From the NCBI RefSeq assembly GCF_022846255.1, contig NZ_AP025682.1: a stretch of DNA of 64,000 nucleotides. One strand, 5' to 3'. The notes below the pieces were generated by a model. It made no database searches. It was given only the letters and a program-made list of their open reading frames with translations, and was not told the origin of the DNA. Shown piece after piece: positions 13,133-64,000 of this stretch. Made by a program: the position numbers and the translations under genes. The stretch's first letter is position 1. Each line of letters opens with the position of its first letter. The stretch comes from Escherichia coli (GTDB lineage Bacteria; Pseudomonadota; Gammaproteobacteria; Enterobacterales; Enterobacteriaceae).

Positions 13133-14142
13133 TTATTTGTTGTTGCGCAGATCCAGCGCCACGTCGACGATCATATCCTCCTGGCCGCCAACCATCCGGC
13201 GTTTGCCCAGCTCAACGAGAATATCCACCGCGCTTAAGCCATAACGCGCCGCCGCCGTTTCACAGTGACGCAGGAAGCTCGAGTAAACACCAGCGTATCC
13301 CAGCGCCAGCGTTTCGCGATCGACTCGTACCGGTCGATCCTGCAACGGACGCACCAGGTCGTCAGCGGCATCCATTAACGCATAGAGATCGGTCCCATGC
13401 TGCCAACCCAGTTTATCCGCGGCGGCAATAAAAACTTCCAGCGGCGCGTTACCTGCGCCCGCGCCCATTCCCGCGAGGCTGGCGTCGATTCGGTCGCAGC
13501 CCTCTTCCACCGCCGCGATAGAGTTCGCCACGCCAAGACTCAGGTTATGGTGAGCGTGTATGCCGGTTTGCGTTTCTGGTTTCAGCACTGCTTTCAGAGC
13601 GCGGAAACGGTCACGGATATCGCTCATGTTCATCGCACCGCCAGAATCCACCACATAAATACAGGTCGCACCGTAGCCTTCCATCAGCTTTGCCTGCTTT
13701 GCGAGATTCTCCGGCGTGGTCATATGGCTCATCATCAGAAAACCAACGGTGTCCATTCCGAGCTCGCGAGCATACTGAATATGCTGGGCGGAAACATCAG
13801 CTTCGGTACAGTGCGTAGCCACACGAACCACCCGCGCGCCAGCCTGCCAGGCATTTTTCAGATCGTGAATAGTGCCGATTCCAGGCAGCAACAACGTCGC
13901 GATTTTGGCGTGCTTCACCACATCCGCCGCCGCTTCAATCCATTCAAGGTCGCTATGTGCGCCGAAACCATAGTTAAAGCTGGAACCTTGCAAACCGTCG
14001 CCGTGGGCCACTTCAATCGAATCCACGCGGGCATCGTCCAGTGCTTTGGCAACCTGGAGAACGTTTTCCAATGAATACTGATGACGAATGGCGTGCATAC
14101 CGTCACGCAACGTGACGTCCGAGATATAAAGTTTTTTACCGT

Positions 14143-39184: not shown

Positions 39185-40234
39185 TCAGTCTGTTAGTGTG
39201 CGATTATCGATAACAAAACGATATTTCACATCACCACGCAGCATTCGCTCATAGGCTTCATTAATTTGATCGGCCCGAATCATCTCTATATCAGCCACGA
39301 TGCCATGTTCGGCGCAAAAATCGAGCATCTCCTGAGTTTCTGGAATGCCGCCAATCATAGAACCAGCTATCGCGCGGCGTTTCATGATCAGGTTGAAAAC
39401 TTCCGGGGATTTATGCGGTGTCGCAGGCGCACCAACCAGCGTTATGGTGCCATCGCGCTTCAGCAAGGTGGTAAAATCGTCGAGATTATGTGGCGCAGCT
39501 ACTGTATTCAAAATGAAATCGAAACTCTTCACATGAGCCGCCATCTCATCGGCATTGCGTGAGTTAACAACTTCATCGGCCCCCAGGGCTTTTGCCGCTT
39601 CGCGTTTTGACTCAGAAGTGGTAAATGCCACCACATGCGCCCCCATCGCGTGGGCCAGTTTAATCCCCATATGTCCCAGACCGCCGATGCCGACCACGCC
39701 CACTTTTTTACCCGGCCCGGCCTGCCAGTGGCGTAGCGGCGAGTACGTGGTGATTCCTGCACACAATAAAGGAGCCACCGCCGCCAGCTGCTCTTGCGGG
39801 TGACGAATACGCAGAACATATCGCTCATGAACGACGATCTGTTGTGAGTAGCCGCCCAGAGTATGGCCCGGTTCATCCGGTGTCGGCGAGTTATAGGTTC
39901 CGGTCATGTGATCACAGTAGTTTTCCAGCCCATCTTCACACTCTTCGCAATGTTTACAACTGTCGACAATGCAGCCGACACCAACCAGATCGCCCGGCGC
40001 ATGTTTTTCTACCTGATCACCAACGGCTACCACGCGCCCCACAATTTCATGACCCGGCACGCAGGGGTAAACCGTCCCCGCCCACTCCGAACGGACCTGG
40101 TGGAGATCGGAATGGCAGACGCCACAGTAAGCGATTTCGATTTTGACATCATGCGGTCCCGGTTCACGCCGGGTGATATCCATCGGTTCAAGGGGTTGTT
40201 TAGCGGAATATGCACCAACAGCTTTGATCTTCAT
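39185..40234 (-). CDS. yahK: NADPH-dependent aldehyde reductase (zinc alcohol dehydrogenase family)
   Basis: 349 aa; CGVCHSDLH and GHEIVG zinc-ADH motifs. Confidence 0.93.
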   Translation of the reverse strand: MKIKAVGAYSAKQPLEPMDITRREPGPHDVKIEIAYCGVCHSDLHQVRSEWAGTVYPCVPGHEIVGRVVAVGDQVEKHAPGDLVGVGCIVDSCKHCEECEDGLENYCDHMTGTYNSPTPDEPGHTLGGYSQQIVVHERYVLRIRHPQEQLAAVAPLLCAGITTYSPLRHWQAGPGKKVGVVGIGGLGHMGIKLAHAMGAHVVAFTTSESKREAAKALGADEVVNSRNADEMAAHVKSFDFILNTVAAPHNLDDFTTLLKRDGTITLVGAPATPHKSPEVFNLIMKRRAIAGSMIGGIPETQEMLDFCAEHGIVADIEMIRADQINEAYERMLRGDVKYRFVIDNRTLTD

Positions 40235-40320
40235 TGTGTTTACTCCTGATTAGCTATGTGTATTTGGCGATGCCTGATATGTCATCGCGGCAAAACGCGT
40301 CCATTGAATATAGCCAATAT

Positions 40321-41277
40321 TTAAACCACCCGATCCAGCCCCAACATGCCGCGAGCCTGAATGAAACAGAGCAGCAACGTTCCCCATAAGGCCATCGTCA
40401 GGTAGGGGCTTATACCGAGAATATTGAAGCCGCTTTCAATAATTTGCAGAAGAAACAGCGCCAGCACCATACCAATTATCCGCCCGCTGCCGCCGTCCGG
40501 ATTAACCCCGCCGAGTACTGCCGCGAGGATTGACACCAGCAAGTACGATTCGCCATAAGAGGCCTTAGCCGAGTTGAGTTTCGACATCATCAAAAATGCC
40601 GCTACCGCACAAAGCAAGGCGGAAATGACATACACCCATATCAGCACCCGACGAGTGTTAATACCGGAGTAAAGTGTTGCTCGTTCGTTAGAACCAATCA
40701 GATAAATGGCTTTACCGAGCGGCGTTTTCTCCAGCAATATCCACAGCCCCAGCGCCACTGCGGTAAACAACCACATCGGTAGCGGAATACCGAACCACTG
40801 TGCATGATTCAACCACAGCACCCATGAGGGATAATTGGCAATGGCGCTACCGCCTGTCACCAGAATATTTACCCCTTTGAGCAACGTCATCATCCCAAGC
40901 GTTGCAAGAATTGGCGACACTCGAATACCAGCAATCAATACGCCGTTACATAAACCGATTATCACCGCCGCGCCAGCGCCTGCCAGTAACGTAGCGACAA
41001 CCGTAGCAATACCCGGTGGATACTGAGTCGCCACCCACGCCATCACCAGTGAACAGGCGTTAGCAGTGGCTATAATTGACAAGTTAATGCCACCGCAAAG
41101 CATGGTCACCGCCATAGCCAACGCCAGAATGCCCAGCACGGGCATTTGCGAAGCGACGGACTGGAAATTACTTATCGACCAGAAAATCTCCGGCATAGTA
41201 ATGCTGAAGGCGGCAACAGTTAGCACCAGCAGGCCGATCAAGTAAAACTCAACGTTATTACGCCACGATTTTTTCAT
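40321..41277 (-). CDS. sugar ABC transporter permease (RbsC/LsrD-like)
   Basis: Polytopic membrane protein; ATG at 41277 overlaps the stop of the upstream permease as ATGA. Confidence 0.8.
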   Translation of the reverse strand: MKKSWRNNVEFYLIGLLVLTVAAFSITMPEIFWSISNFQSVASQMPVLGILALAMAVTMLCGGINLSIIATANACSLVMAWVATQYPPGIATVVATLLAGAGAAVIIGLCNGVLIAGIRVSPILATLGMMTLLKGVNILVTGGSAIANYPSWVLWLNHAQWFGIPLPMWLFTAVALGLWILLEKTPLGKAIYLIGSNERATLYSGINTRRVLIWVYVISALLCAVAAFLMMSKLNSAKASYGESYLLVSILAAVLGGVNPDGGSGRIIGMVLALFLLQIIESGFNILGISPYLTMALWGTLLLCFIQARGMLGLDRVV

Positions 41278-42245
41278 AGCAGACTCCGGTTCTGATGCTG
41301 ACTCCACGCCGTGGCGCTAATGCTGGCAACGATGATGATGCCAGTGATCAATGTTTGCCAGTAAGACGAGACTCCCAATAAATTTAGCCCGTTTTGCATC
41401 ACTGCCAACAACACCACGCCGAGCAAAGTACCGGTTAACGTGCCGCGCCCGCCGAGCAAACTAGTGCCGCCAAGCACCACCGCAGCCAGTACTGTCAGCT
41501 CATAACCCAGAAGAGAATCGGGGGCGACAGTCATCACCGTCCACGACTGCACTACACCCGCAGCACCAGACATCAATCCCATATAGCCATAGACGAAAAG
41601 TTGCAGTTTCAGCACACTAAAGCCGATGCGACTGGCTGATTCGCGGTTCCCGCCAAGGGCATAAATTTTGCGCCCTACACTGGTGAAATTCATGATAAAC
41701 GCTGTTAGCAGCACCACCGTAATCATGGCGATCAGCGGTAGACCAAGGCCATAGTCATAGCCATCAGCATCGGTGTACTTGAACAACATAACCCCCTGCT
41801 CAAACCACGGCGGAAAGTCGTACAGCCACACACCTTTACTCAACCATAACAGCAGGCCATAGAAAATATTCAGCGTCGAGATAGTGATGATGATAGAAGG
41901 CACCCGTAGGCGATTAACCAGTAAGGCGTTAATTAAGCCAAGTAAAATGCCGATGCCGCCCGCCAGTGCAAACGCGACAGCAAAGTTACCACCCATTTTT
42001 TGCAGCAACAGCACCATGCCGTATTGCGCAATGATGGTCATTGCTGGAAACGAAATATCAATTCCACCGGAAATCAACACCACAAACAAACCACAGGCGA
42101 GAATAGTCAACATGGCATAGTTATTGGCGAGATCGTACAAATTACCGAATGTCAGAAACTCGTCGCTGCGCCAGGCAAGGCCGACAAACAGCCCCACAAT
42201 CAGTAATGCCAGCCAGAATTCATGACGTTTTTTCAGTTCAGCCAT
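41274..42245 (-). CDS. sugar ABC transporter permease (RbsC/LsrC-like)
   Basis: 323 aa polytopic membrane protein; start overlaps the ATPase 3' end by 8 nt. Confidence 0.8.
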   Translation of the reverse strand: MAELKKRHEFWLALLIVGLFVGLAWRSDEFLTFGNLYDLANNYAMLTILACGLFVVLISGGIDISFPAMTIIAQYGMVLLLQKMGGNFAVAFALAGGIGILLGLINALLVNRLRVPSIIITISTLNIFYGLLLWLSKGVWLYDFPPWFEQGVMLFKYTDADGYDYGLGLPLIAMITVVLLTAFIMNFTSVGRKIYALGGNRESASRIGFSVLKLQLFVYGYMGLMSGAAGVVQSWTVMTVAPDSLLGYELTVLAAVVLGGTSLLGGRGTLTGTLLGVVLLAVMQNGLNLLGVSSYWQTLITGIIIVASISATAWSQHQNRSLL

Positions 42246-43722
42246 TTACCACCTCCGCAATCCTGGCCTGAGAACTGCTGTCAGGCAGGAAGCTATGGGT
42301 GATCTGACCTTTTTGCATTACCAAAATCCGGTGGCTTTGATACCACGCTTCTTCAATTTCATCGCAGATCATCAATACCGCAATGCCATGAGCCGCCAGA
42401 TCGCTGATAATGCCGTATATTCCTGCTTTGTTGGCGATATCAACACCGACTGTCGGGCTATCGAGAATCAACAGTCGTGGCCCAATCGCCAGCCATTTGG
42501 CGATCGATACTCGCTGCGCGTTACCACCAGAAAGCGTATTCACCGGGAGATGTGGGTCAGAGACTTTGATGGTCAATGCCTTGATTAGCCTGTCCACCAG
42601 GTCACGCACTTTAGCTTCACTCAGAAAGCCGAAGCGATCTTTTACCTTGTGAAAAACAGTGCTAATGATGTTGTCTTCAATAGATTGCGCCATCACCAAA
42701 CCGCGCGACATGCGATCTTCCGAAACATAACCAATACCGTGGCGGATGGCGTCCTGGTTACTATGCAGTGTAACCGGCTGACCGTTGATGAGGATCTCGC
42801 CAGCATCCGGTCGGGTCATACCAAACAGACTCAGACATAATTCCGTGCGCCCCGCACCAAGCAGGCCAATAATCGACACCACTTCGCCCGCTTCCACCCG
42901 CAAGTTAATATTTTGATATTCCCCATGACGACTTAAATTACGCACCTCCAGCACTGGGATGCTGGATTTTCCCTGCCACAACTCTCGTACCTGATATTCA
43001 AACTCCTGGCCGGTCATCAGGAAACCGAGTTGTTTTGTGGTCATCTCTGCAGCCGGAAAGGTCCCGACCAGCTCACCATCTTTCAGCACTGAAATACGGT
43101 CGGAAACTTCCATCACCTCTTCCAGACGATGACTGACGAAGACCACGCAGATCCCGCGTTCCCGCAATTGATGCACCACCTGTAATAACCCTTGCACTTC
43201 CTGATGGGTCAGCGAAGCGGTTGGTTCATCCATCACAATCAACCGTGCGTCCTGCGCCAGTGCACGGCAAATTGCCACCAGCTGACAGCGGGCAATTGAA
43301 AGCTCAGAAACGAGCGTATCCAGTGGCAATGTGACGTTAACACTGGTCATTGCCGCCTGCGCCACCTCACGCAGACGACGTCGGTTAACAAACAGACCGT
43401 GGTGATAGTGATTCACGGCGATATTCTCCCAGACACTCAGGTTAGGAAATAAAGAGAGGTCCTGATAAATCACCTGAATCCCCTGCGCCACCGAAGCGGC
43501 GGGTGTCAGCTTTGACCAGTTTTTCCCACCAAGCGTAATTTCCGCTCCCTCATCCGGGCGATAAACACCGGACATAATTTTAATCAACGTCGATTTACCA
43601 CAGCCGTTTTGCCCGGCAAGGCAGTGCACTTCACCCGACATAAAGTCGAGAGAAACATCGCGCAGCGCTCGCGTGGCATGAAACGTTTTGTTGATATGAC
43701 GAAGGGAAAGGAAGGTTTCCAT
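42238..43722 (-). CDS. sugar ABC transporter ATP-binding protein with two fused ABC domains (RbsA/LsrA-like)
   Basis: From ATG 43722 (METFLSLRHINKTF...), preceded by AGGGGA; Walker A GQNGCGKST, second domain GLLGAGRTEL, signature LSGGNAQR. Confidence 0.85.
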   Translation of the reverse strand: METFLSLRHINKTFHATRALRDVSLDFMSGEVHCLAGQNGCGKSTLIKIMSGVYRPDEGAEITLGGKNWSKLTPAASVAQGIQVIYQDLSLFPNLSVWENIAVNHYHHGLFVNRRRLREVAQAAMTSVNVTLPLDTLVSELSIARCQLVAICRALAQDARLIVMDEPTASLTHQEVQGLLQVVHQLRERGICVVFVSHRLEEVMEVSDRISVLKDGELVGTFPAAEMTTKQLGFLMTGQEFEYQVRELWQGKSSIPVLEVRNLSRHGEYQNINLRVEAGEVVSIIGLLGAGRTELCLSLFGMTRPDAGEILINGQPVTLHSNQDAIRHGIGYVSEDRMSRGLVMAQSIEDNIISTVFHKVKDRFGFLSEAKVRDLVDRLIKALTIKVSDPHLPVNTLSGGNAQRVSIAKWLAIGPRLLILDSPTVGVDIANKAGIYGIISDLAAHGIAVLMICDEIEEAWYQSHRILVMQKGQITHSFLPDSSSQARIAEVVNG

Positions 43723-43770
43723 AACATCCCCTGGCAATAAGAATCGGGGCTTTCGCCCCGAAGAAATGGA

Positions 43771-44757
43771 TTAATAAAGTGAGTCGATATTGTCTTTGTT
43801 GACCAGTAATACCTTATGGAAACGGATAATTCGCTTATCCATATCTACGTCGGCCTTCCCCAGATTCTGCATTTCTAATCCAGGTTTGATCTCTTCACCC
43901 TTCAGCAACGTGCTGGCGACGGCTGCGAGTGCGTAACCTGCAGAGGCCGGATCGTAAGTAATCCCTTCGGTGATATCACCACTTTTAATCAGTGATGCCG
44001 CCTGTGAAGGAATCATCATGCCATAGACTGCGACTTTATTTTTCGCCCGTTTCTCTTTCACTGCACGTCCCGCGCCAATCGGACCGTTTGAACCAAAGGA
44101 GACAACCGCTTTCAAGTCAGGATAGGTTTTCATCAGGTCCAGTGTGGTACGACGTGAGTCATCCACACTCTCGGCAACCGGCATGCGGCGGGTAACTTCA
44201 TGCATATCCGGGTAATGCTCTTTCTGGTATTTCACCAGCAAGTCAGCCCATAAGTTATGCTGCGGCACGGTCAAACTACCCACGTAAATCACATAGCCGC
44301 CCTTGCCACCCATGCGTTTCGCCATATGTTCAACATATTCAGCGGCAAATTTTTCGTTATCAATGATTTCGATATCCCAGTTAGCACTTAGCTGACCGGG
44401 GGATTCGTTGGTCAGAACCACAATTCCGGCATCTCGCGCTTTTTTGAATACCGGTTCCAGCACGTTGGCATCGTTTGGCACAATTGTAATTGCATTAACC
44501 TTACGGGCGATTAAATCCTCAATAATTTTAACTTGTTGCGGAGCATCAGTACTTGAAGGCCCCACCTGTGACGCATTAACACCAAAGGCTTTACCCGCCT
44601 CAACCACACCTTCGCCCATGCGATTAAACCACGGCATACCATCGACTTTAGAGATATTCACCACGACTTTTTCCGCTGCCTGGAGCGGCGCAGAAATTAG
44701 CGCAGCGCCTAATAACAGCGAAGACACCATATTGATAACAAAACGTTTATTCATCAT
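43771..44757 (-). CDS. periplasmic sugar-binding protein, LsrB/RbsB-like
   Basis: 328 aa with signal peptide MMNKRFVINMVSSLLLGAALISAPLQA; N- and C-terminal blocks resemble LsrB (...NKDNID...). Confidence 0.8.
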   Translation of the reverse strand: MMNKRFVINMVSSLLLGAALISAPLQAAEKVVVNISKVDGMPWFNRMGEGVVEAGKAFGVNASQVGPSSTDAPQQVKIIEDLIARKVNAITIVPNDANVLEPVFKKARDAGIVVLTNESPGQLSANWDIEIIDNEKFAAEYVEHMAKRMGGKGGYVIYVGSLTVPQHNLWADLLVKYQKEHYPDMHEVTRRMPVAESVDDSRRTTLDLMKTYPDLKAVVSFGSNGPIGAGRAVKEKRAKNKVAVYGMMIPSQAASLIKSGDITEGITYDPASAGYALAAVASTLLKGEEIKPGLEMQNLGKADVDMDKRIIRFHKVLLVNKDNIDSLY

Positions 44758-45003
44758 TTCAGCCTCATTGCAGGGTAGTCAGGAAGTGTTCGCCCAAATT
44801 AGCGCGCTGGAGAGAATAAGAATTTTCGAATATTTTTATGCAGAATAAACAGCCCTATTTCAGGCAGCTATTAAAAATTTGGTTATAAATATGGACAAAA
44901 CGGGCAGCAACAATAAGTGTGATAATCATCACGTAAAAAACAGCAAAATAAACAAAATTAGCGATACTTTATGTTTGTGAGCTTATTTCGCGTAGAAAAA
45001 TAG

Positions 45004-45418
45004 TTATCTACACAACGTCAATAAGGGCATATTCTTCAAAGATAACGTCCATTTCGGGTGAATAGCATCCTTCTGCCTGGAAAAAACGACGGTGTTCATT
45101 ACGCCAATATTCAAGACTGAGGTCACCTTCACCTTCCTTACGGGCAAGCTCTGCGGTGACATCAGAAAAGCGCAGTAAATGCAGGCCAATCACTCTGATA
45201 ACACAGACAGGCTCACCACGGCTATTTTCTACAATCTTATACTCACCAATCAGCGGAAATGCGTTGTCTTCAATACATCCCGCCAGCGAACCACAGGAAG
45301 CTGTTTTAACACCAGTCGCAATCAACGTTGCGAGGTGATCGGCCAACGCTGCTGAATCGCCAAAAGTACAAAAGGAAGCATGGGGATATTTTTGTGAGAT
45401 TTTTTCTTTTATGGTCAT
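45004..45418 (-). CDS. small cytoplasmic protein, possibly ASCH/PUA-like
   Basis: about 138 aa from ATG 45418 (MTIKEKISQKYPHASF...); fold assignment is a weak guess from motif resemblance. Confidence 0.4.
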
Positions 45419-45717
45419 GAGAATATTTTCGCGATTACGGAAAAACAAATCACATCTTAATTACTGTTGATAACCATCAGCAAGAAGATCATTGGTTTTT
45501 CGATGCTTAATCTTTTTTATCCGAAGCAGGTCACATTTATGGCTTGATAAATATCTTTGTTAAAACTCACTTTTGTGTATTTCTCTCAAATAATCCCCTG
45601 GAAATTACGCCCGGAGATTATAAAGTTCAGGATCATTCATTAGCAAACCATTGCTGCCCCACTCCCTGGGGCTTTAAATCTCTTACTGTTCACCATTGCA
45701 GGCGTTTCAAATGCGTA

Positions 45718-47100
45718 TCAACCTGCCACGCTCCCCCACACCAGTTGCCCTTTATGGAACGTTGCGGTTCTCGGCGAGATACGCGCCACCGCCTCGGCGG
45801 AACAGGAGGCGTCCACCAGCACAAAGCTGGCGTCATCCTGCGCTTTAGGCCACACGCGCTCGCCTTTTTCGTTGAGCGGCAATACATCGCCAGTGGCTAA
45901 AAACAGCGAGCGGGAGAGGTTCTGTTCGTTAGGACGAATATAGAGCTGCGCGTACAGATTGGCTTTTTCCAGCATGTCGCCCAGGCCGTAAGGCGACCAG
46001 TGGTCGATAACGCTGTCGGTGCCGGTCATCACTTTTACGCCTTTGTCGTGCAACTGTTTGAGCGGCATATGCAGCGTGCCAATCGGTACCGTCGAGGCGA
46101 TAGAAATTTGCTGCGCCGCCATCCGGTGCGCCAGTTCATCTACCTGTTGTTCGTTGAGCGTTGCCAGCGCGAAGGCGTGGCTGATGGTCAGCTTGCCCTT
46201 CAGCTGTGGCGTTTTCTCTACCGTTTCAACCATATAATTGATGGCTGCCACGCCTGCCGGAGTGGTTTCGTGCAGGTGAATATCGACGCCTTTGTCGTAG
46301 TCCAGCGCAATCTGGAACATGGTGTCGAGGGATTTTTCCATCGCGCCATCGACACTGGTCGGGTCCAGCCCGCCGACGTAATGCGCGCCCGCCTGCATTG
46401 CTTCACGCATTAAAGGTTCCGATTTCGACAGCAGCAAACCGTGCTGCGGGAAGGCGACAATTTCACACTCGAAGCCCGCCTGACGTCGCGCCAGCACCGA
46501 CTGCAAATTTTGCAGATTTTTCAGGCCGGAAACCGGTTCGATATTGCAGTGGCTGCGGGCAATGGTGGTGCCTTTTGACTGCAATAAATCGATCAGTTTT
46601 TCCGCCCGTTCCTGAGTATATGGTTGCAGCTCCGGCAGCATTTTCTGCTCGAGTTTGATCATGTCCTGGATAGTGGTGCCTGCCGGACGATTGAGCGAGC
46701 GCCACGGCCCGCCGTAGAAGGTTTTATCGAGATGAATATGCATGTCGCGGGTGGTGGGCAGCATCAGCTTACCGCCAGCGTCATAGTGCGGCAGCGTGGC
46801 GTCCGGATGCTGCTTGTTCTCGCGCAGGGCAACAATTTTACCGTCCTGAATCTCCACGGTCTGGCGCGCCGTGCGGGTCTGTACCGCCACGCCATTTTCG
46901 TAGTCAAAACCGGTTTCCAGCAGCACGTTATCGAGATAGTAATGCGGGTCAGTGATTTTCATGGTGTTGTTCGCTTCGCAGTTTAGGGTGCCAGCTACCC
47001 CCGCATGGGCGAGCGGCACTGAGGGACCAAACAGCGCGGCGGCGGTAACCATCTTACCGCTCTGGCTCAGAAATTCACGGCGGCTATTGTTTTCTTTCAT
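45718..47100 (-). CDS. yahJ: Tat-exported metal-dependent amidohydrolase/deaminase
   Basis: 460 aa; twin-arginine signal SRREFLSQSGKMVTAAALFGPSVPLAHA; HIH metal site. Confidence 0.9.
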   Translation of the reverse strand: MKENNSRREFLSQSGKMVTAAALFGPSVPLAHAGVAGTLNCEANNTMKITDPHYYLDNVLLETGFDYENGVAVQTRTARQTVEIQDGKIVALRENKQHPDATLPHYDAGGKLMLPTTRDMHIHLDKTFYGGPWRSLNRPAGTTIQDMIKLEQKMLPELQPYTQERAEKLIDLLQSKGTTIARSHCNIEPVSGLKNLQNLQSVLARRQAGFECEIVAFPQHGLLLSKSEPLMREAMQAGAHYVGGLDPTSVDGAMEKSLDTMFQIALDYDKGVDIHLHETTPAGVAAINYMVETVEKTPQLKGKLTISHAFALATLNEQQVDELAHRMAAQQISIASTVPIGTLHMPLKQLHDKGVKVMTGTDSVIDHWSPYGLGDMLEKANLYAQLYIRPNEQNLSRSLFLATGDVLPLNEKGERVWPKAQDDASFVLVDASCSAEAVARISPRTATFHKGQLVWGSVAG

Positions 47101-47109
47101 CTTACGTCC

Positions 47110-48060
47110 TTAGGTTTTAATAATATGGGTGCCCGTTTCGCCGCGTAGCGCCGCAGGCAGGCATTCCGGCGTGGTGATAATCACTTCTTTGCCGCCTTGT
47201 TCCAGGAACGTCAGGCTGGCGATGATTTTTGGCAACATGCTGCCAGGTGGGAAATGCCCTTCCTGCATATAGCGGGTCATGGTGGCAATATCTACGCGAT
47301 CCAGCGCCTGCTGCTGCGGTTTGCCAAAGTGAATACACACTTTTTCGACGCCAGTGGTGATCACCAGAATGTCGGCGTGAATTTCGCGAGCCAGTAGCGC
47401 GGTAGAGAAATCTTTGTCGATAACCGCGTCCACGCTTTGGTAATCCCCCGCGTCAGTACGCACTACCGGAATTCCGCCGCCGCCCGCGCCAATCACCACA
47501 AAGCCTTGTTGGATCAGCGCCTTAATGGCAGGTGCTTCGACAATACGTTTCGGTTCCGGCGAGGCGACCACGCGGCGATAGCCCCGTCCGGCATCTTCAA
47601 CAAAACGCCAGTCAGGGTTTGCCTTTTGTAGTTCGTCACGCTGGCTTTCATTAAAGAATGCGCCAATGGGTTTGGTGGGATGAGCAAAACCCGGATCGTT
47701 TTTATCCACTTCCACCTGGGTCACCACGGTGACGGCTTTTTTCTCGCCATGACGCGCCAGTCGGTTGTTCAGCGCCTGCTGGATCAGATAGCCAATGCCA
47801 CCTTGCGTATCCGCCACACAGTTCGCCAGCGGCGTTAAGGGCAGCCCTTCGCGCTCGTGGGCAATCTCCGCGCGGCGTAAATCCAGCCCGACCTGCGGCC
47901 CGTTGCCGTGGGTCAGCACAATGTCGTAATCGGAAGCCAGCATTTCCAGCACCGTATCGGCCACGGCTTTCACCGCCTCCGCCTGATGCTCAATCGACTG
48001 GCTGGCGTTATCTTTGATAATGCTGTTGCCACCAATGGCAACGACCACAAGTTCTTTCAT
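47110..48060 (-). CDS. yahI: carbamate kinase-like protein
   Basis: 316 aa MKELVVVAIGGNSIIKDN..., amino-acid kinase fold. Confidence 0.9.
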   Translation of the reverse strand: MKELVVVAIGGNSIIKDNASQSIEHQAEAVKAVADTVLEMLASDYDIVLTHGNGPQVGLDLRRAEIAHEREGLPLTPLANCVADTQGGIGYLIQQALNNRLARHGEKKAVTVVTQVEVDKNDPGFAHPTKPIGAFFNESQRDELQKANPDWRFVEDAGRGYRRVVASPEPKRIVEAPAIKALIQQGFVVIGAGGGGIPVVRTDAGDYQSVDAVIDKDFSTALLAREIHADILVITTGVEKVCIHFGKPQQQALDRVDIATMTRYMQEGHFPPGSMLPKIIASLTFLEQGGKEVIITTPECLPAALRGETGTHIIKT

Positions 48061-48104
48061 GTTGTTATGTCCGCGACAGAGGGTGATGGGGTTATGACCA
48101 ACGC

Positions 48105-48292
48105 CAGACTGCCTGATGCGCTACGCTTATCAGGCCTACAGATTCTTGCGCCACTCGTAGGCCGGATAAGGCGTTCACGCCGCATCCGGCTGTGGTGGCC
48201 AATGCCTGAAGCGCCACGCTTATCAGGCCTACAGATTTCCGCGCCATTCGTAGGCCGGATAAGGCGTTCACGCCGCATCCGGCAGAAACAAC
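48105..48292. repeat. tandem REP/BIME cluster between yahI and yahG
   Basis: Two ~95-bp units, each CTGATGCGCTACGCTTATCAGGCCTACAG...GTAGGCCGGATAAGGCGTTCACGCCGCATCCGGC. Confidence 0.8.
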
Positions 48293-48306
48293 GCGCACTT
48301 TACAGA

Positions 48307-49725
48307 TCAGACGCCGTAACGTTCGCACCAGCCAAAAATGGCTTTCTCGAAGCAGGCGAAGGGTGGATGCACAATGCCCGCGCCAATCATGCCGACGCCC
48401 GCATCTTTATGGGCGATGGCGGTGTTGATCACTGGCAGAATGCCGCTGCTACCCACGCGGGTGATGTCGATTGCCGACGGAACGCCCATAAAACCGAGCA
48501 GCGGAATGGTGACGTTGGGGTTTTCGCCAAGGGTGATTTCACGCATCTGACGGGAGAAATCGATAGCCTCTTCCACCGTGCCACCCACCAGCGCGACGAT
48601 CGCGGGCGCGGTCGCCATCGCAAATCCGCCGATACCGTAGGTTTCGGTGATGGCGCTGTCGCCAATATCCAGCCCTGAATCTTCCGGCTTATAACCGGCA
48701 AACATCGGGCCGATGACCTGCTGCGCCGGGCCGGTAAACCACTGCCCCGGCAGGCCGCTGACCCGCAGGCCGAACTCGACGCCGTTACGCGCCATGGTGG
48801 TCACCACGGTGCTGTATTCGATGCCGTGCGCCGCATCCATCGCCGCTTTACACATCGCCATCCACGTCGGGCCGGAGAAGTAGTCGCTGCTGGCGACAAA
48901 CTCAAACACTTCGCGCTGTTGCTCGACGGAATAACCTGCCTGAATAATCCCCGGCGTCAGCGCCTGAATCAGCAGCGTCGTCCCGGCGTTATTGCGGTTA
49001 TGGCATTCATCGCCCATATGCAGCGCCTGCGCCAGCATTAAGCGCAGATCGATTTCGCCGATAATTTTCATCGCGTCGCGCAGCATGGGTCCCTGCACAT
49101 CGCGCATCCAGTTGAGGCGGTCGATCACGCTCTGGTCGTTAGCGCCCATACGCAAAATCTTCGCCATCTGCTCGCTCATGTTGGTATAAGCGACGTTGCC
49201 ATAGGTTTTGTTTTTCACGATGTGCATAAACATCGAGGCCGAGGTGACGCCCGCCATCGATCCCACACAGTCGTGCTCGTGGCACGGCGAGAAGGTGATC
49301 TCCCCGGAAGCCGCCAGCTCAGCCGCCTCGTCGAGATCTTTCGCCAGTCCTTCAAACACCAGCGCTCCGGTGACCGCGCCTTTCATCGCGCCGCACATTT
49401 TTTCCCAGGTGACCGGCGGCCCGGCGTGAAGAATGGTTTTCGGCGTCATGCCCGGCACCACGTTAATCGCCTGATCAAAACCAATCAGCACCGGATGCGA
49501 CTGGATAATGCGCTCCAGCGCCTGCTGGTTAGCGGCGGTGATTTTGTCCGCCAGCGGCGAATCGGCAATGTTGTCCAGTGCCTGCACCACCTGCATATTG
49601 CCCTGCCCCGGCGGCGTCCAGTCGAGTTGGGTCACTTCTACATGCTGCTTTTTCAGATCATCGCTAAACATGGCGATACCGACGTTAATAACGTTCAACG
49701 GTTGGCTAAACAGTGACTGGCTCAT
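48307..49725 (-). CDS. yahG: DUF1116 protein (YlbE/AllG paralogue)
   Basis: 472 aa. Confidence 0.88.
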   Translation of the reverse strand: MSQSLFSQPLNVINVGIAMFSDDLKKQHVEVTQLDWTPPGQGNMQVVQALDNIADSPLADKITAANQQALERIIQSHPVLIGFDQAINVVPGMTPKTILHAGPPVTWEKMCGAMKGAVTGALVFEGLAKDLDEAAELAASGEITFSPCHEHDCVGSMAGVTSASMFMHIVKNKTYGNVAYTNMSEQMAKILRMGANDQSVIDRLNWMRDVQGPMLRDAMKIIGEIDLRLMLAQALHMGDECHNRNNAGTTLLIQALTPGIIQAGYSVEQQREVFEFVASSDYFSGPTWMAMCKAAMDAAHGIEYSTVVTTMARNGVEFGLRVSGLPGQWFTGPAQQVIGPMFAGYKPEDSGLDIGDSAITETYGIGGFAMATAPAIVALVGGTVEEAIDFSRQMREITLGENPNVTIPLLGFMGVPSAIDITRVGSSGILPVINTAIAHKDAGVGMIGAGIVHPPFACFEKAIFGWCERYGV

Positions 49726-51272
49726 CAGGCTTCCTCCCCTTTGCAGATAAATTCACGCGCCAGCAATCCGGTATTGGTGCTGCTGCTCGCCAGAATCACT
49801 CCGGCATCAAGCAGCATCTGGCTTTGTTGTTCTAATGATGGCGTATCGAGATCGGTGCCCAGCACATAGGCGAGAATGATCAACTCGCGTCCTTCGGCAG
49901 CGGCGATCGCTTTCGCTTCTTTGATCGCCTCGATGGTGGAACCGACCGGATCTTCATGCGATCCAAATCCGAGCACAAAATCCATCACGATCACCGCCAC
50001 TTCTGGATCGCGCGCTTCTTCGATCAAGCGGCTGATACGGTTGGTCGGGTCAATCATTGGATGCGGCTTGCCGTTGGTGAAGTCATCATCGCCAAAATCG
50101 AGGAAGGTGTGTTTGATGCTGCGGTTGATATCTTGCAGGCGGAATTCAGGATCGGGCTGGATATTGCTGTAGACATCGCCATGTTTTTCCATCACCGCGA
50201 ACAGGGTTTCGTCACACAGCGTACCGCCGCAGAACAGACCACGAATGTATTTCTGCTGCGGTTGCAGACGCGCACGCACATCCGCAATCAACGGCTGGTT
50301 AAGCGTATGCAGGTCGAGATGTTCTTGTTTCACGCCGGAGAGCATCACCGCTTTCAATGCCGCCTCTTTGCTGCCGCGAGCAAACTGTAGCCCCTGCTCA
50401 TCCACTGGCGTTTCGCCACGACCGAGGAAGCAGGCCACCACTGGCTTGCGGCAGGCGCGTGCGCGTTCCAGCACTTTGCGGGCCACCGCAGGCGCAGGCG
50501 GTTTGGAGATAAGCACAATGATTTCAGTTTGCGGATCGTTTTCCAGCATCCCGATGGCATCGAGCATCATCAGGCCACCGATTTTCTCGCTCAGGTCGCG
50601 CCCGCCGGTGCCGATCAGTTGTGAAACGCCGCCACCAAATTCATGGATACGGACGCTCAATTCCTGGCTGCCGGTGCCAGATGCGCCAACAATACCGATG
50701 TTGCCGCGACGCACGGCGTTACCAAAGCAGAGCGCCGCGCCGTTGATAATCGCCGTGCCGCAGTCTGGCCCCATCATCAGCAGCCCTTTTTCATGGGCCA
50801 ACTGTTTGAGCGCCAGTTCATCTTCAACTGAGACATTATCGGAAAACAGCATCACGTTGAGGTCATTTTGCAGCGCCTGACGCGCTTCGCGAGCGGCAAA
50901 CAGACCGTTGACCGAAATCACTGCCAGGTTACTTTCCGGGATATGCTTTTTGGCGCTGGCAATAGTGCCGTAACGCGCCTCGTGCGAGCCGCTTTGCGCT
51001 TTGGTGTTGAACAGTTCTTCAATCTCCGCCAGCAACTGCTCGTTGTCCACACCCGATTTACCATTGATGACAATCATCAGGTCGCCGTTTTTCGCCTGCT
51101 CCAGCTCCGGCGTCAGCAGTCCTAAATTCTTCAACACGCCTTTGTTCATTTCGGTCGCCATCGCCACAAATGCCTGCTCGACGCCGTCGAGTTTATTTGC
51201 ACGCGTGGAGATAGACATCAGCGAGACAGAATCAAAATAGGTATTCGGTTTAATGACTATTTTAACTGACAT
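49725..51272 (-). CDS. yahF: FdrA-like CoA-binding protein (FdrA/AllF paralogue)
   Basis: 515 aa; succinyl-CoA-synthetase-alpha-like Gly-rich motifs. Confidence 0.88.
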   Translation of the reverse strand: MSVKIVIKPNTYFDSVSLMSISTRANKLDGVEQAFVAMATEMNKGVLKNLGLLTPELEQAKNGDLMIVINGKSGVDNEQLLAEIEELFNTKAQSGSHEARYGTIASAKKHIPESNLAVISVNGLFAAREARQALQNDLNVMLFSDNVSVEDELALKQLAHEKGLLMMGPDCGTAIINGAALCFGNAVRRGNIGIVGASGTGSQELSVRIHEFGGGVSQLIGTGGRDLSEKIGGLMMLDAIGMLENDPQTEIIVLISKPPAPAVARKVLERARACRKPVVACFLGRGETPVDEQGLQFARGSKEAALKAVMLSGVKQEHLDLHTLNQPLIADVRARLQPQQKYIRGLFCGGTLCDETLFAVMEKHGDVYSNIQPDPEFRLQDINRSIKHTFLDFGDDDFTNGKPHPMIDPTNRISRLIEEARDPEVAVIVMDFVLGFGSHEDPVGSTIEAIKEAKAIAAAEGRELIILAYVLGTDLDTPSLEQQSQMLLDAGVILASSSTNTGLLAREFICKGEEA

Positions 51273-52125
51273 AATTCCCTCCGTAGGTTTGACTCAGCGC
51301 ACAACCATCGGCCATGCCATACAGCATGTCGCAGCCGGAACTGGAGCCAATATGTTTAATTTTTTCTATTGCCTGAGTTGCGTTCCCAGGGATGTCATAA
51401 ATAATGTTGTGAATAAAACGATGAATATTTTCCCGGCAGCGTTGTTGTAATGCGGCTTCCAGCGTGATGGCACTTAATAACGTGGTATTATTTCTGCCGC
51501 GTTGCAAACCGAGATAAAATTCCTCTTTGTATTTTTCCGCCGGATGTCCGGAAATAAATAAAATAAGTACCAGTCCGGTCAGATAATCATCGGCTGATGG
51601 CGTAAGGCCAATCCCTAAGCCCATCATACTGGCGACTGCTGAGGCGATATTTTGTTTATCGTTTACGGCCTGAATAACTGCCCGTCGTTTAATATGTAGT
51701 TCTTTATTTAACGCCTGATAAAACGGATTATCGCCGCGATAATTAAACAGGGTTTCATTTTCCCCCAGGTGCTGATGAATAATGTCGTGCCACTGTTGCC
51801 AGGCGATAAGGTGAAAATTCACAGCGGTCATTTGCAAGGTTGGGGACAGCCAACGCCGACAACGACTCATCTCTATATGAAGATGTTGACCAACCGTAAT
51901 GCCTTGATCGTCAAACTGAACCTTATCACCATGCCGGAACAGACCATTAAAGTGAGTGAGTGCCAACCGACAACTGTTTGGCGCATTGTCGTACTCTTCA
52001 CAAAGCAGCGTTAGCAACTGCTGGCGAGCCGGGAGTGCGATATTTACCGCTCTGGCAAAGACCTGTTCAACCTGTCCTTGCCCCCGCTGCGCCAGAAAAT
52101 CAGCATCCGCAGTTAGCGCCCACAC
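51262..52125 (-). CDS. yahE: DUF2877 protein (YlbF/AllH paralogue)
   Basis: 287 aa; non-ATG start as given by the ORF track; overlaps yahF by 11 nt. Confidence 0.8.
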   Translation of the reverse strand: MWALTADADFLAQRGQGQVEQVFARAVNIALPARQQLLTLLCEEYDNAPNSCRLALTHFNGLFRHGDKVQFDDQGITVGQHLHIEMSRCRRWLSPTLQMTAVNFHLIAWQQWHDIIHQHLGENETLFNYRGDNPFYQALNKELHIKRRAVIQAVNDKQNIASAVASMMGLGIGLTPSADDYLTGLVLILFISGHPAEKYKEEFYLGLQRGRNNTTLLSAITLEAALQQRCRENIHRFIHNIIYDIPGNATQAIEKIKHIGSSSGCDMLYGMADGCALSQTYGGNYVS

Positions 52126-60804: not shown

Positions 60805-62493
60805 TTGCAATTTGACTACATCATTATTGGTGCCGGCTCAGCCGGCAACGTTCTCGCTACCCGTCTGACTGAAGATCCGAACACAACCGTGCTGCTGCTT
60901 GAAGCAGGCGGCCCGGACTATCGCTTTGACTTCCGCACCCAGATGCCCGCCGCGTTGGCGTTCCCGCTACAGGGCAAACGCTACAACTGGGCCTATGAGA
61001 CGGAACCCGAACCGTTTATGAACAACCGCCGCATGGAGTGCGGACGCGGCAAAGGTCTGGGCGGTTCATCGCTGATCAACGGTATGTGCTACATCCGTGG
61101 CAATGCGCTGGATCTCGATAACTGGGCACAAGAACCTGGTCTGGAGAACTGGAGTTATCTCGACTGCCTGCCCTACTACCGCAAGGCCGAGACTCGCGAT
61201 GTGGGCGAGAACGATTACCACGGTGGCGATGGCCCGGTGAGCGTCATCACCTCCAAACCCGGCGTCAATCCGCTGTTTGAAGCGATGATTGAAGCGGGCA
61301 TGCAGGCAGGCTACCCGCGCACGGACGATCTCAACGGCTATCAGCAGGAAGGTTTTGGCCCGATGGATCGCACCGTCACGCCGCATGGCCGTCGCGCCAG
61401 CACCGCGCGTGGCTATCTCGATCAGGCCAAATCGCGCCCTAACCTGACCATTCGTACTCACGCCATGACCGATCACATCATTTTTGACGGCAAACGCGCG
61501 GTGGGCGTCGAGTGGCTGGAAGGCGACAGCACCATTCCGACCCGCGCGGCGGCGAATAAAGAAGTGCTGTTATGTGCAGGCGCGATTGCTTCACCGCAGA
61601 TCCTGCAACGCTCCGGCGTCGGCAACGCTGAACTGCTGGCGGAGTTTGATATTCCGCTGGTGCATGAATTACCCGGCGTCGGCGAAAATCTTCAGGATCA
61701 CCTGGAGATGTATCTGCAATACGAGTGCAAAGAACCGGTTTCCCTCTACCCTGCCCTGCAGTGGTGGAATCAGCCGAAAATCGGTGCGGAGTGGCTGTTT
61801 GGCGGCACCGGCGTTGGTGCCAGCAACCACTTTGAAGCAGGCGGATTTATTCGCAGCCGTGAGGAATTTGCGTGGCCGAATATTCAGTACCATTTCCTGC
61901 CAGTGGCGATTAACTATAACGGCTCGAACGCAGTGAAAGAGCACGGCTTCCAATGCCATGTCGGATCGATGCGCTCGCCAAGCCGTGGGCATGTGCGGAT
62001 TAAATCCCGCGACCCGCACCAGCATCCGGGAATTCTGTTTAACTACATGTCGCACGAGCAGGACTGGCAGGAGTTCCGCGACGCAATTCGCATCACCCGC
62101 GAGATCATGCATCAACCCGCGCTGGATCAATACCGTGGCCGCGAAATCAGCCCTGGTGTCGAATGCCAGACGGATGAGCAGCTCGATGAGTTCGTGCGTA
62201 ACCACGCCGAAACCGCGTTTCATCCGTGCGGTACCTGCAAAATGGGTTATGACGAGATGGCTGTGGTTGACGGCGAAGGCCGCGTACACGGGCTGGAAGG
62301 CCTGCGCGTGGTGGATGCGTCAATTATGCCGCAAATTATCACCGGCAATTTGAACGCCACGACGATTATGATTGGCGAGAAAATAGCGGATATGATTCGT
62401 GGGAAGGAAGCGTTGCCGAGGAGCACGGCGGGATATTTTGTGGCAAATGGGATGCCGGTGAGAGCGAAAAAACTGAATCGCGATTTGAACTAA
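60805..62493 (+). CDS. betA: choline dehydrogenase (GMC oxidoreductase)
   Basis: Probable TTG start at 60805, 5 nt after AGGAGG (60794-60799), giving [21 protein letters not shown]...; FAD-binding GxGxxG at N-terminus. Start codon is an inference. Confidence 0.9.
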
Positions 62494-63602
62494 CGCAGGA
62501 ACTTACAAGATTGAGAGTTACCGTTCTACGATGAGGACCGAATCCTTATATAAAAAACATAGGTAACTCTCATGCTTCATATCCGCAGTCCCGCCATCAA
62601 ACTTTAAGCCGATTCGCTCAATCTGGCGGATGATGGTGCTATGGATACGCTGATAAACCACAAGTGTAATGCCACTCAGCTTAAGAATCACGCAACCAGT
62701 GCTCCTGGCTAGGGTTACTTGTTCTTTCCCACTCCCGGTTAGCAGTGGTCAGCGATCAACTGCGTAAGCCGGGCGTATTTATCCCAAAGCGTGGAGTAAT
62801 ATCAGGTCTACGCTAAAAAAGTCAATTTATTCGGTTATCATGCACGAAAAGGGGACTTGTGGCGAGTATAAAAATAAGTCAGACCCAAAAACTACGTGGA
62901 GCTTTAAACACGGTTCGTATAATTTATTAGCAGCGATTTATTTTTACCCTTCTTTAATCAGTCATCATGATTAAATATTTTTTATCACAAGATTATCGCT
63001 TCTCTAACATTTTATTTTTTATTTATTATCAATTGATAAGAAAAAATTGTTAGTACGTTTTTGCAAAAAATTAAAAGTGTTGGGATACACTTAAACAAAT
63101 GAACAAAAACCAAACAAACTGAGATTTGCAATCAGAAAAAATTATTCAAGAGAACATCTCTAATTTATTGGTAGCGTCCATGAACGATGATTTCCTCACA
63201 ACCAAAAAGTAAAGAAAATCTTATGATAAGATATATTTGTAAATTAGTATTATTAACGTCAAAGATCTTTTCTTTTCTGCACCCTTACTTTGCAACGCAT
63301 AAAAAACAAATAAAATCAATAATATATGCAGAAAAAGTTATTTTACGTAAAAATAACATTAAATAAATCAAGACTATTGAACATCACTAAAACATTAGAC
63401 GTAATACACATTCACCCCCGCTCCTTGACTCAGGGTTTTAATATTTTTTGTTTCACATCATTGTAGAAAAAATCGCGCATTAAAAATGAGTTGTAGAAAA
63501 ACCGCACAATAAATATTTCATATTTAATCTATTGCGTAGAACTACTATTCAAAAAATCTTATTAATGAGATAATGAAATTACATCGATAACGTTCTGATT
63601 GC

Positions 63603-63635
63603 AGGCACACTTATCTGGGTGTGCCTCTTTTTTTT
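63603..63635 (+). terminator. strong intrinsic terminator: stem AGGCACAC/GTGTGCCT, 8-nt loop, then 8 T
   Basis: Read directly; ends 20 bp upstream of the recombinase ATG. Confidence 0.7.
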
Positions 63636-63655
63636 ACAACTGTACACGGTGGCGT

Positions 63656-64000
63656 ATGACGAGAAAATATCTCACACAGGATGAAGTCTACAGGCTGATG
63701 GATGCAGCCCAGAGCATGTCCTTTCCTGAAAGAAATCGCTGTCTAATTATGATGGCTTTCATTCACGGTTTTAGGGCCAGTGAACTTCTTGATTTACGTT
63801 TATCCGATATTGATGCATCAGGAAAACAACTTAATATCCGGCGTATTAAAAATGGCTTCTCGACAACACATCCTCTTCTTCCTGATGAATATAATCTGAT
63901 CAAGTTGTGGCTTAAGCAGAGGAAGTTAATTGAAAATGGAGTTGAAGGAGACTGGCTTTTTCTCTCCCGGAAACGCCGCCCTATCAGCAGACAACATTTT
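63656..64000 (+). CDS. FimB/FimE-family tyrosine recombinase, N-terminal 115 codons (truncated by window end)
   Basis: MTRKYLTQDEVYRLMDAAQSMSFPERNRCLIMMAFIHGFRASELLDLRLSDIDASGKQLNIRRIKNGFSTTHPLLPDEYNLIKLWL...FLSRKRRPISRQ; the FIHGFRASE, RxKNGFSTTHPL and FLSRKxxPxSRQ blocks match FimB/FimE. Confidence 0.8.
   Translation, partial: MTRKYLTQDEVYRLMDAAQSMSFPERNRCLIMMAFIHGFRASELLDLRLSDIDASGKQLNIRRIKNGFSTTHPLLPDEYNLIKLWLKQRKLIENGVEGDWLFLSRKRRPISRQHF

Follow-up and report, generated by a model that had tools for sequence, protein, structure and literature searches.

The right end of the 64,000-nt stretch of Escherichia coli DNA analysed here (hereafter the window) raises the question of whether a recombinase gene cut off by the window edge, together with the long AT-rich leader in front of it, belongs to a phase-variation switch and, if so, to which one. 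The original prediction held that a FimB/FimE-like gene begins at 63656 and runs off the window, that extra recombinases of this kind occur in extraintestinal E. coli, and that an invertible segment and its targets would mostly lie past the edge. We conclude, with a probability of roughly 93%, that positions 62585–64000 are the left end of the known genomic island PAI-X and that the gene at 63656 is ipbA (synonyms fimX and hbiF). This locus has been described before, as the PAI-X/fimX–hyxS system (PMC6083910, PMC6458436, PMC8777976). A phase-variation locus was thus correctly flagged from raw sequence, the clues being an AT-rich leader and the 115 codons that follow it.

The gene at the window edge is ipbA

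The gene occupies the last positions of the window.

63656..64000, + strand: ipbA (=fimX=hbiF), codons 1–115 of 187; the frame is open to the window end

The ATG at 63656 is preceded by GGTGG, and the frame runs from there to 64000 (345 nt, 115 codons) free of frameshifts and stop codons. Its 115 residues share 50.0% identity with FimB and 42.6% with FimE of K-12, as expected for the FimB/FimE-like gene that had been predicted. They are identical at 115/115 positions to IpbA of CFT073, SE11, Trh52 and Z1323HEC0475, and the match to CFT073 supports the proposed kinship with the additional FimB-like recombinases of extraintestinal E. coli. In matched genomes the gene carries the annotation ‘ipbA: tyrosine-type DNA invertase IpbA’, and RefSeq adds the synonyms HbiF and FimX. 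The IpbA/FimX/HbiF gene of the uropathogenic and meningitis-associated strains CFT073, UTI89 and RS218 is the same gene at the same site beside betA.

Against the NCBIfam model NF007370 (‘tyrosine-type DNA invertase’), the window fragment scored 119.6 bits (E = 1.3e-34), below the model cut-off only because the fragment represents 61% of the protein. The full-length orthologue clears the cut-offs of both NF007370 (252.3 bits, with 221 required) and NF007371 (235.3 bits, with 222 required), and its identity is 55.4% with FimB and 52.4% with FimE. It measures 187 aa, compared with 200 aa for FimB and 198 aa for FimE, and PF00589 (Phage_integrase) spans residues 4–176, so that the protein consists of the catalytic domain only. 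IpbA therefore shares its family, size class and catalytic residues with the two K-12 recombinases. R40 and K65 are the sole members of the catalytic set encoded inside the window; H135, R138, H161 and Y170 fall outside the window but are kept in 4/4 full-length orthologues, where they align with their FimB and FimE counterparts. The concern that the C-terminal half might lack catalytic residues is thereby removed for the orthologues. Judged by its sequence, the ipbA product belongs to the FimB/FimE invertases, as a predicted tyrosine recombinase of 187 aa with a single domain. For the window genome itself, we infer that the 3′ half of ipbA and hyxS are both intact.

PAI-X separates betA from an intact ykgH

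Upstream of the island, the window carries core-genome DNA.

60805..62493, + strand: betA (choline dehydrogenase), from the ORF list and the core-genome context
62494..62584, no strand: core betA–ykgH spacer common to K-12, from blastn against the K-12 empty site

The betA gene (GC 0.51–0.625 in 200-bp windows) encodes a 562-aa form with a C-terminal extension of 6 codons relative to K-12; it is annotated at 1,689 nt in L001, L002 and O157, and in a 1,671-nt form in K-12, CFT073 and SE11. The core spacer that follows holds a 16-nt inverted repeat (62507–62522/62562–62577). Homology to K-12 stops at window position 62584 and resumes ~6.1 kb further on, at position 18272 of L002, just upstream of ykgH. 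Alignment to the K-12 empty site by blastn thus sets the left island boundary at 62584/62585, and the break and resumption of homology indicate that the island sits between betA and ykgH, with an intact ykgH retained downstream. The idea that the locus lies where K-12 has ykgH needs correction accordingly: the gene is intact and has been displaced by ~6.1 kb, not replaced. With K-12 as reference, an insertion of this size between betA and ykgH places the locus in PAI-X. The related genomes inspected have no annotated tRNA gene where the island is inserted.

Five related genomes share the gene order betT–betI–betB–betA, leader, ipbA, spacer, hyxR, hyxA, hyxB, ykgH and ykgGFE. The genes hyxR, hyxA and hyxB follow ipbA in 5/5 of them, and the window itself ends before these genes. 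The downstream genes are those of the CFT073-type PAI-X, seen in genomes with 99% identical DNA. The locus comprising betA, leader, ipbA, hyxS, hyxR, hyxA, hyxB and ykgH occurs in ~1,890 of 5,426 complete E. coli genomes. By megablast, the whole stretch from 62400 to 64000 is matched over its full length in 1,880 of these 5,426, at identities of up to 99.0%. The closest match is Trh52 (99.0%), followed by Z1323HEC0475 (98.9%), and the best identity among complete E. coli genomes over positions 40000–52000 is 98.8%, so the window lineage has no close twin among complete genomes. Differences from the nearest allele cluster at the 3′ end of betA (8 in 52 bp) and at 62948–63003 (6 in 56 bp).

The match to the catalytic domain of the Pfam ‘Phage integrase family’ and the position at the border of horizontally acquired DNA might also suggest an integrase, encoded by a prophage or integrative element, rather than a phase-variation invertase. 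We give this reading almost no weight. The full-length protein has 187 aa and consists of the catalytic domain alone, without an N-terminal DNA-binding domain, and its best NCBIfam models are FimB/FimE-type invertases, scoring above cut-off; scores on the XerC/D and integron integrase models stay well short of the respective cut-offs, and the P4-type integrase model NF007246 yields 17.8 bits against a cut-off of 434. Downstream of ipbA, related genomes carry a LuxR regulator, hyxA and an autotransporter gene and no phage genes, a gene content that refutes a prophage integrase, and the adjacent hyxS element inverts in nature, as described below.

The hyxS switch occurs in both orientations

The invertible segment and its target gene lie past the window edge, as anticipated: hyxS and hyxR are directly downstream of ipbA in every related genome examined. 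In related genomes, hyxS begins 12 bp past the ipbA stop codon, ~230 bp beyond the window edge, and is a segment of ~277 bp bounded by 16-bp inverted repeats. Searching for short inverted repeats around a segment of 200–400 bp, the check that had been proposed, thus leads to hyxS. In L002, the repeat TGATTCAAAATGTCAG stands 12 bp past the ipbA stop, and its inverted copy follows 245 bp further, 40 bp before the hyxR start. The published hyxS has 16-bp repeats, in agreement with the L002 layout (PMC6083910).

Both orientations of hyxS were built as queries and searched against finished E. coli genomes (n = 5,426). The orientation of CFT073 and L002 was present in 1,781 genomes and the inverted orientation in 16. 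In AVS0744, a member of the inverted class, the junctions are exactly as expected for an exchange inside the repeats. The presence of both orientations among finished assemblies is therefore natural evidence of hyxS inversion.

Published work attributes the inversion of hyxS to FimX alone. Through its orientation, hyxS controls hyxR, a gene that reduces tolerance of reactive nitrogen species and influences bacterial survival inside macrophages (PMC6083910, PMC6458436, PMC8777976). FimX also inverts fimS and ipuS (PMC6083910, PMC6458436, PMC8777976), and the recombinase activity at hyxS, fimS and ipuS was reported for the CFT073 and UTI89 proteins (PMC6083910, PMC6458436). Genome-wide screens with FimX overexpressed in UTI89 and CFT073 returned fimS, hyxS and ipuS as the only targets (PMC6458436).

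Taken together with these reports, the locus would operate as follows. IpbA/FimX would recombine the two 16-bp repeats and thereby flip hyxS; the flip would switch transcription of hyxR between two heritable and reversible states, on and off, given the promoter that the literature places within hyxS. In full island copies, hyxS is followed by hyxR (encoding a LuxR-type regulator), hyxA and hyxB (encoding an autotransporter). IpbA would also act in trans on fimS, which governs type 1 pili, and on ipuS. A sigma-70 consensus scan of hyxS returned no promoter-like site in either orientation, and the assignment of ON and OFF states to the two orientations therefore rests on the literature, which is likewise the source for FimX catalysis, for the phenotypes and for a promoter within hyxS. 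By these reports, the ipbA/fimX–PAI-X locus of extraintestinal E. coli links phase variation of type 1 pili with hyxR-dependent tolerance of nitrosative stress and survival in macrophages.

The arrangement resembles that of the fim locus: in both, a recombinase gene stands just upstream of an invertible element of ~300 bp, and an AT-rich non-coding region precedes it (~1.16 kb for ipbA and ~1.45 kb between nanC and fimB). The two differ in the length of the repeats, 16 bp at hyxS versus 9 bp at fimS (PMC6083910), in the number of linked recombinases, one at hyxS versus two at fimS, and in the target, which is a regulator gene (hyxR) for hyxS and a fimbrial operon for fimS. A second relative, compared here by its description, is the IpuA/IpuB–ipuS system of CFT073, whose accessory Fim-type invertases are also encoded on a pathogenicity island (PMC6083910). 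There, ipuS controls a LuxR-type regulator and an autotransporter (ipuR–upaE), in parallel to hyxR–hyxA–hyxB (PMC6083910). By the same description, ipuS is set apart from hyxS by its other chromosomal location, its 7-bp repeats and its two recombinases.

Precise and recurrent loss of hyxS

Full-length hyxS is kept in ~95% of island-bearing genomes (1,797 of 1,879–1,891). Trh52, the closest relative of the window, is an exception: its spacer between ipbA and hyxR measures 58 bp versus 329 bp, and exactly 271 bp between direct repeat copies have been lost. Across the finished genomes, both flanks were found together in 1,879 and the hyxS interior in 1,801, which leaves ~78 genomes (~4%) without hyxS. 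At least 31 of these ~78 matched the Trh52 junction in one alignment without gaps. Genomes without hyxS (~78) outnumber those in the minority orientation (16), in counts that ignore clonal kinship. Trh52, an armadillo isolate and UPEC clone D i2 have one and the same junction, which is thus present on two ipbA alleles.

The site at the right end of hyxS, CCTGACATTT-TGAATCA-AAATGTCAGG, is palindromic almost throughout, and it therefore offers the repeat both inverted and direct relative to the left site. With direct as well as inverted copies at the right site, the recombinase could occasionally excise hyxS instead of flipping it. It is thus possible, and we propose it tentatively, that the FimX/hyxS system has a third, irreversible state in which excision permanently removes the hyxR promoter element. 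The loss could have come about by recombinase-mediated excision between direct sites, with spacers that are alike except for their central base, or by replication slippage; the latter, across a direct repeat of 12–15 nt, is the ordinary alternative. Loss of hyxS was not mentioned in the literature searched, a set to which the original hyxS descriptions do not belong.

These losses bear on the window strain, in which the locus might be present without a working switch, hyxS having been excised or ipbA or hyxR having decayed beyond the window edge; the recombinase would then at most act in trans on fimS. The closest relative of the window carries the precise 271-bp loss, the hyxS interior is missing from ~78 of 1,879 island-bearing genomes, and the O157:H7 locus has decayed, with a frameshifted ipbA and an internal stop in hyxR, all of which fit such a state. 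We nevertheless consider it unlikely: full-length hyxS is the rule among island-bearing genomes, at ~95%, Z1323HEC0475 (98.9% identical) has ipbA, hyxS and hyxR intact, and the 345 nt of ipbA inside the window show neither frameshift nor stop. An intact ipbA followed by an intact hyxS is therefore the reading we retain for the window strain.

To the published system, our analysis adds a census of hyxS states over 5,426 finished genomes, with evidence of natural inversion and of recurrent switch loss, as well as the palindromic right recombination site and a conserved leader hairpin directly before the ipbA start codon. The recurrent precise loss of hyxS, tied to the palindromic right site, and the leader hairpin are the only leads with some novelty; the classification of the locus is unchanged.

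The leader varies between alleles but ends in a conserved 3′ block

Between betA and ipbA, no open reading frame reaches 60 aa over ~1.16 kb, as the original prediction had noted; the longest in any frame of 62494–63655 are 59 aa (63187–63366, + strand) and 57 aa (62518–62691, − strand). The reported change from normal to AT-rich base composition also holds, with GC falling from ~0.47 to ~0.25 along the leader (0.435–0.495 over 62500–62899 and 0.225–0.335 over 62800–63599, in 200-bp windows). We aligned the window with the Z1323, CFT073, SE11 and O157 alleles and scored identity per segment. Beyond the core spacer, the leader divides into three segments, the last of which contains a hairpin.

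62585..62840, no strand: left island edge, non-coding, GC ~0.47; from the allele alignment
62841..63394, no strand: AT-rich spacer, GC 0.22–0.33, no ORF of 60 aa or more; from the allele alignment, 64–88% identity
63395..63655, + strand: conserved ipbA upstream block; from the alignment, per-segment identities and motif positions
63603..63635, + strand: terminator-like hairpin and T-run, ending 20 nt before the ipbA ATG

What had been described as ~340 bp of normal GC content thus consists of two parts, 91 bp of core spacer (62494–62584) and ~255 bp of island DNA (62585–62840). The island part is ~81% identical to the CFT073, SE11 and O157 alleles, and 96 bp of it (62744–62839) are confined to the allele of the window, carried by ~85 of 5,426 genomes. 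Relative to the CFT073 allele, the window accordingly differs in its left ~250 bp (~81% identical, plus the extra 96 bp) and in the middle of the leader (64–76%). Many carriers of the window's island allele come from poultry, pigs and dogs. We also considered 62585–62840 as a gene remnant and rejected this, as its six-frame translations had no NCBIfam match at E values up to 5; against PHROG, the sole match of these translations was phrog_31639, which is non-significant (E = 0.17).

Allele identity is 86–88% over 62840–63050 and then drops to 76% and 64–70% over 63051–63394. The AT-rich spacer (62841–63394) is probably horizontally acquired DNA of the H-NS-silenced type. By blastn, the leader had no DNA similarity to the nanC–fimB–fimE–fimS region (best E = 0.001 over 46 nt). 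A kinship of the leader with the DNA upstream of fimB and fimE, or with other island or window DNA, was likewise rejected, the blastn matches being short AT-rich chance hits.

Conservation is highest next to the gene: 63501–63655 is 95–96% identical across alleles. The conserved block (63395–63655) contains TTGTAGAAAAA twice, at 63461 and 63491, 30 bp apart, and is presumed to comprise the ipbA promoter and 5′ UTR. As a whole, the AT-rich leader would act as a silenced regulatory region, whose conserved last ~150–260 bp, with the hairpin and U-tract, may keep recombinase expression low.

The suspicion that the long AT-rich leader is itself a switch was not borne out. It would take the form of a second invertible element, through which the recombinase might flip its own promoter. 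An 11-bp perfect inverted repeat (63127–63137/63593–63603) flanks 455 bp that include the conserved upstream block, a segment within the size range of fimS, hyxS and ipuS; the region of its left arm matches the extended left repeat of hyxS at 16/19 positions, and a match resembling the hyxS repeat is present on the minus strand at 63119–63134. That match is the one further hyxS-type site in the window, with 3 mismatches, and 0.69 such 16-mer matches are expected there by chance, so we did not accept it as a recombination site. The CFT073, SE11 and O157 alleles do not preserve the left arm. A synthetic inverted query found the segment inverted in 0 of 1,889 genomes, a census of low power for this inversion because only ~85 genomes carry the 11-bp repeat. 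The FimX screens in UTI89 and CFT073, strains without this repeat, gave fimS, hyxS and ipuS only (PMC6458436). A second switch in the leader is thus very unlikely, and hyxS remains the invertible element assigned to ipbA at this locus.

A terminator-like hairpin precedes the ipbA start codon

The hairpin at 63603–63635 consists of a 10-bp stem (AGGCACACTT/GGGTGTGCCT) with a 4-nt loop, followed by CTTTTTTTT, and lies in the nearly invariant block of the leader. The CFT073 stem has T in place of one C, which converts a G–C pair to G–U, so that pairing survives on the + strand only. We also considered a small RNA of a known family in the leader and rejected it: the single Rfam match, RF00124 IS102 (isrC), reached 25.8 bits where the gathering score is 46, and is essentially the terminator hairpin, with high posterior probability at the hairpin only and with 5′ stems missing or mismatched. 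The distance between the T-run and the ATG leaves no space for a promoter, so ipbA is presumably transcribed through the hairpin. The structure could be an attenuator that holds the recombinase low, the end of a small upstream transcript or a plain 5′ stem-loop, and it could set the dose of the recombinase and hence the rate of switching.

Orientation and loss of the hyxS element

The invertible element hyxS lies between the FimB/FimE-type invertase gene ipbA (also named fimX or hbiF) and hyxR, beyond the end of the window, and was examined in complete E. coli genomes and at the following related loci.

L001 (Trh52, the closest relative of the window) 13819-13878; L002 (Z1323HEC0475) 13832-14120; L009 and L010 (other related loci) ~1580-1640: hyxS region or junction, downstream of ipbA
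L007 (NZ_CP124500.1) 2570-2860: example locus for the orientation census

In finished genomes, hyxS was found overwhelmingly in the CFT073-type orientation (n = 1,781), with the inverted form present in 16 (~0.9%), and its junctions agree with exchange inside the 16-bp repeats. The element is absent from ~78 of the 1,879 complete genomes that bear the island. At least 31 of these ~78 carry the same exact deletion of 271 bp, with the junction ACCTTC-TGATTCA-AAATGTCAGG. This junction occurs on no fewer than two alleles of the island, in strains whose hosts range from humans to poultry and include one armadillo. On the right-hand side, the hyxS site forms a nearly perfect palindrome and therefore holds both direct and inverted copies of the left repeat, an arrangement that would allow excision in addition to inversion.

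A conserved block upstream of ipbA

Within the window, two features stand out in the DNA preceding ipbA, which starts at 63656.

63461-63471 and 63491-63501: TTGTAGAAAAA, present twice as a direct repeat in the conserved DNA 5' of ipbA
63603-63635, + strand: intrinsic-terminator-like hairpin and T-run, inside the conserved block 63501-63655

The block at 63501-63655 retains 95-96% identity across alleles, compared with 64-70% in the adjoining leader DNA. Its hairpin is strong and, together with the T-run, ends only 20 nt 5' of the ipbA start codon; judged from this layout, transcription of ipbA must pass through the hairpin, which may act as an attenuator or mark where a small transcript from upstream ends. 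The TTGTAGAAAAA copies are spaced 30 bp apart (about three helical turns), with a CGC(N)CA-like motif after each, and the pair may serve as a regulator binding site.

Allele differences at the left edge of the island

A 96-bp stretch at the left edge of the island (62744-62839) is confined to the allele of the window (~85 genomes) and is missing from the CFT073, SE11 and O157 alleles. The stretch is flanked by GGTTAGCA and GGTTATCA, which suggests that the majority allele arose by deletion between short direct repeats. Differences between the window and the nearest allele are concentrated in two short patches, one at the betA 3' end (62409-62460; 8 differences in 52 bp) and one in the leader (62948-63003; 6 differences in 56 bp), the six leader substitutions being unique to the window relative to all four other aligned alleles. 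Small tracts recombined in from an unsampled lineage may account for both patches. At the end of betA (62470-62493), the K-12 stop codon is missing (ATGA to CTGA), adding six codons (…AKKLNRDLN). The resulting 1,689-nt form is shared by the window, Trh52, Z1323 and O157:H7, and the 1,671-nt form by K-12, CFT073 and SE11.

Decay of the island in O157:H7

In E. coli O157:H7 strain 1130 (L005 10020-13863), the entire island has decayed, with a frameshift and truncation in ipbA, an internal stop in both hyxR and ykgH, and a split hyxB. hyxS is retained, at 93-96% identity.

Elsewhere in the window, the region at 40000-52000 (fdrA-yahG-yahJ and sugar ABC transporter genes) holds a short repeated element that matches a median of ~31 places per E. 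coli genome and is probably of the REP/BIME type, or else a fragment of an IS.
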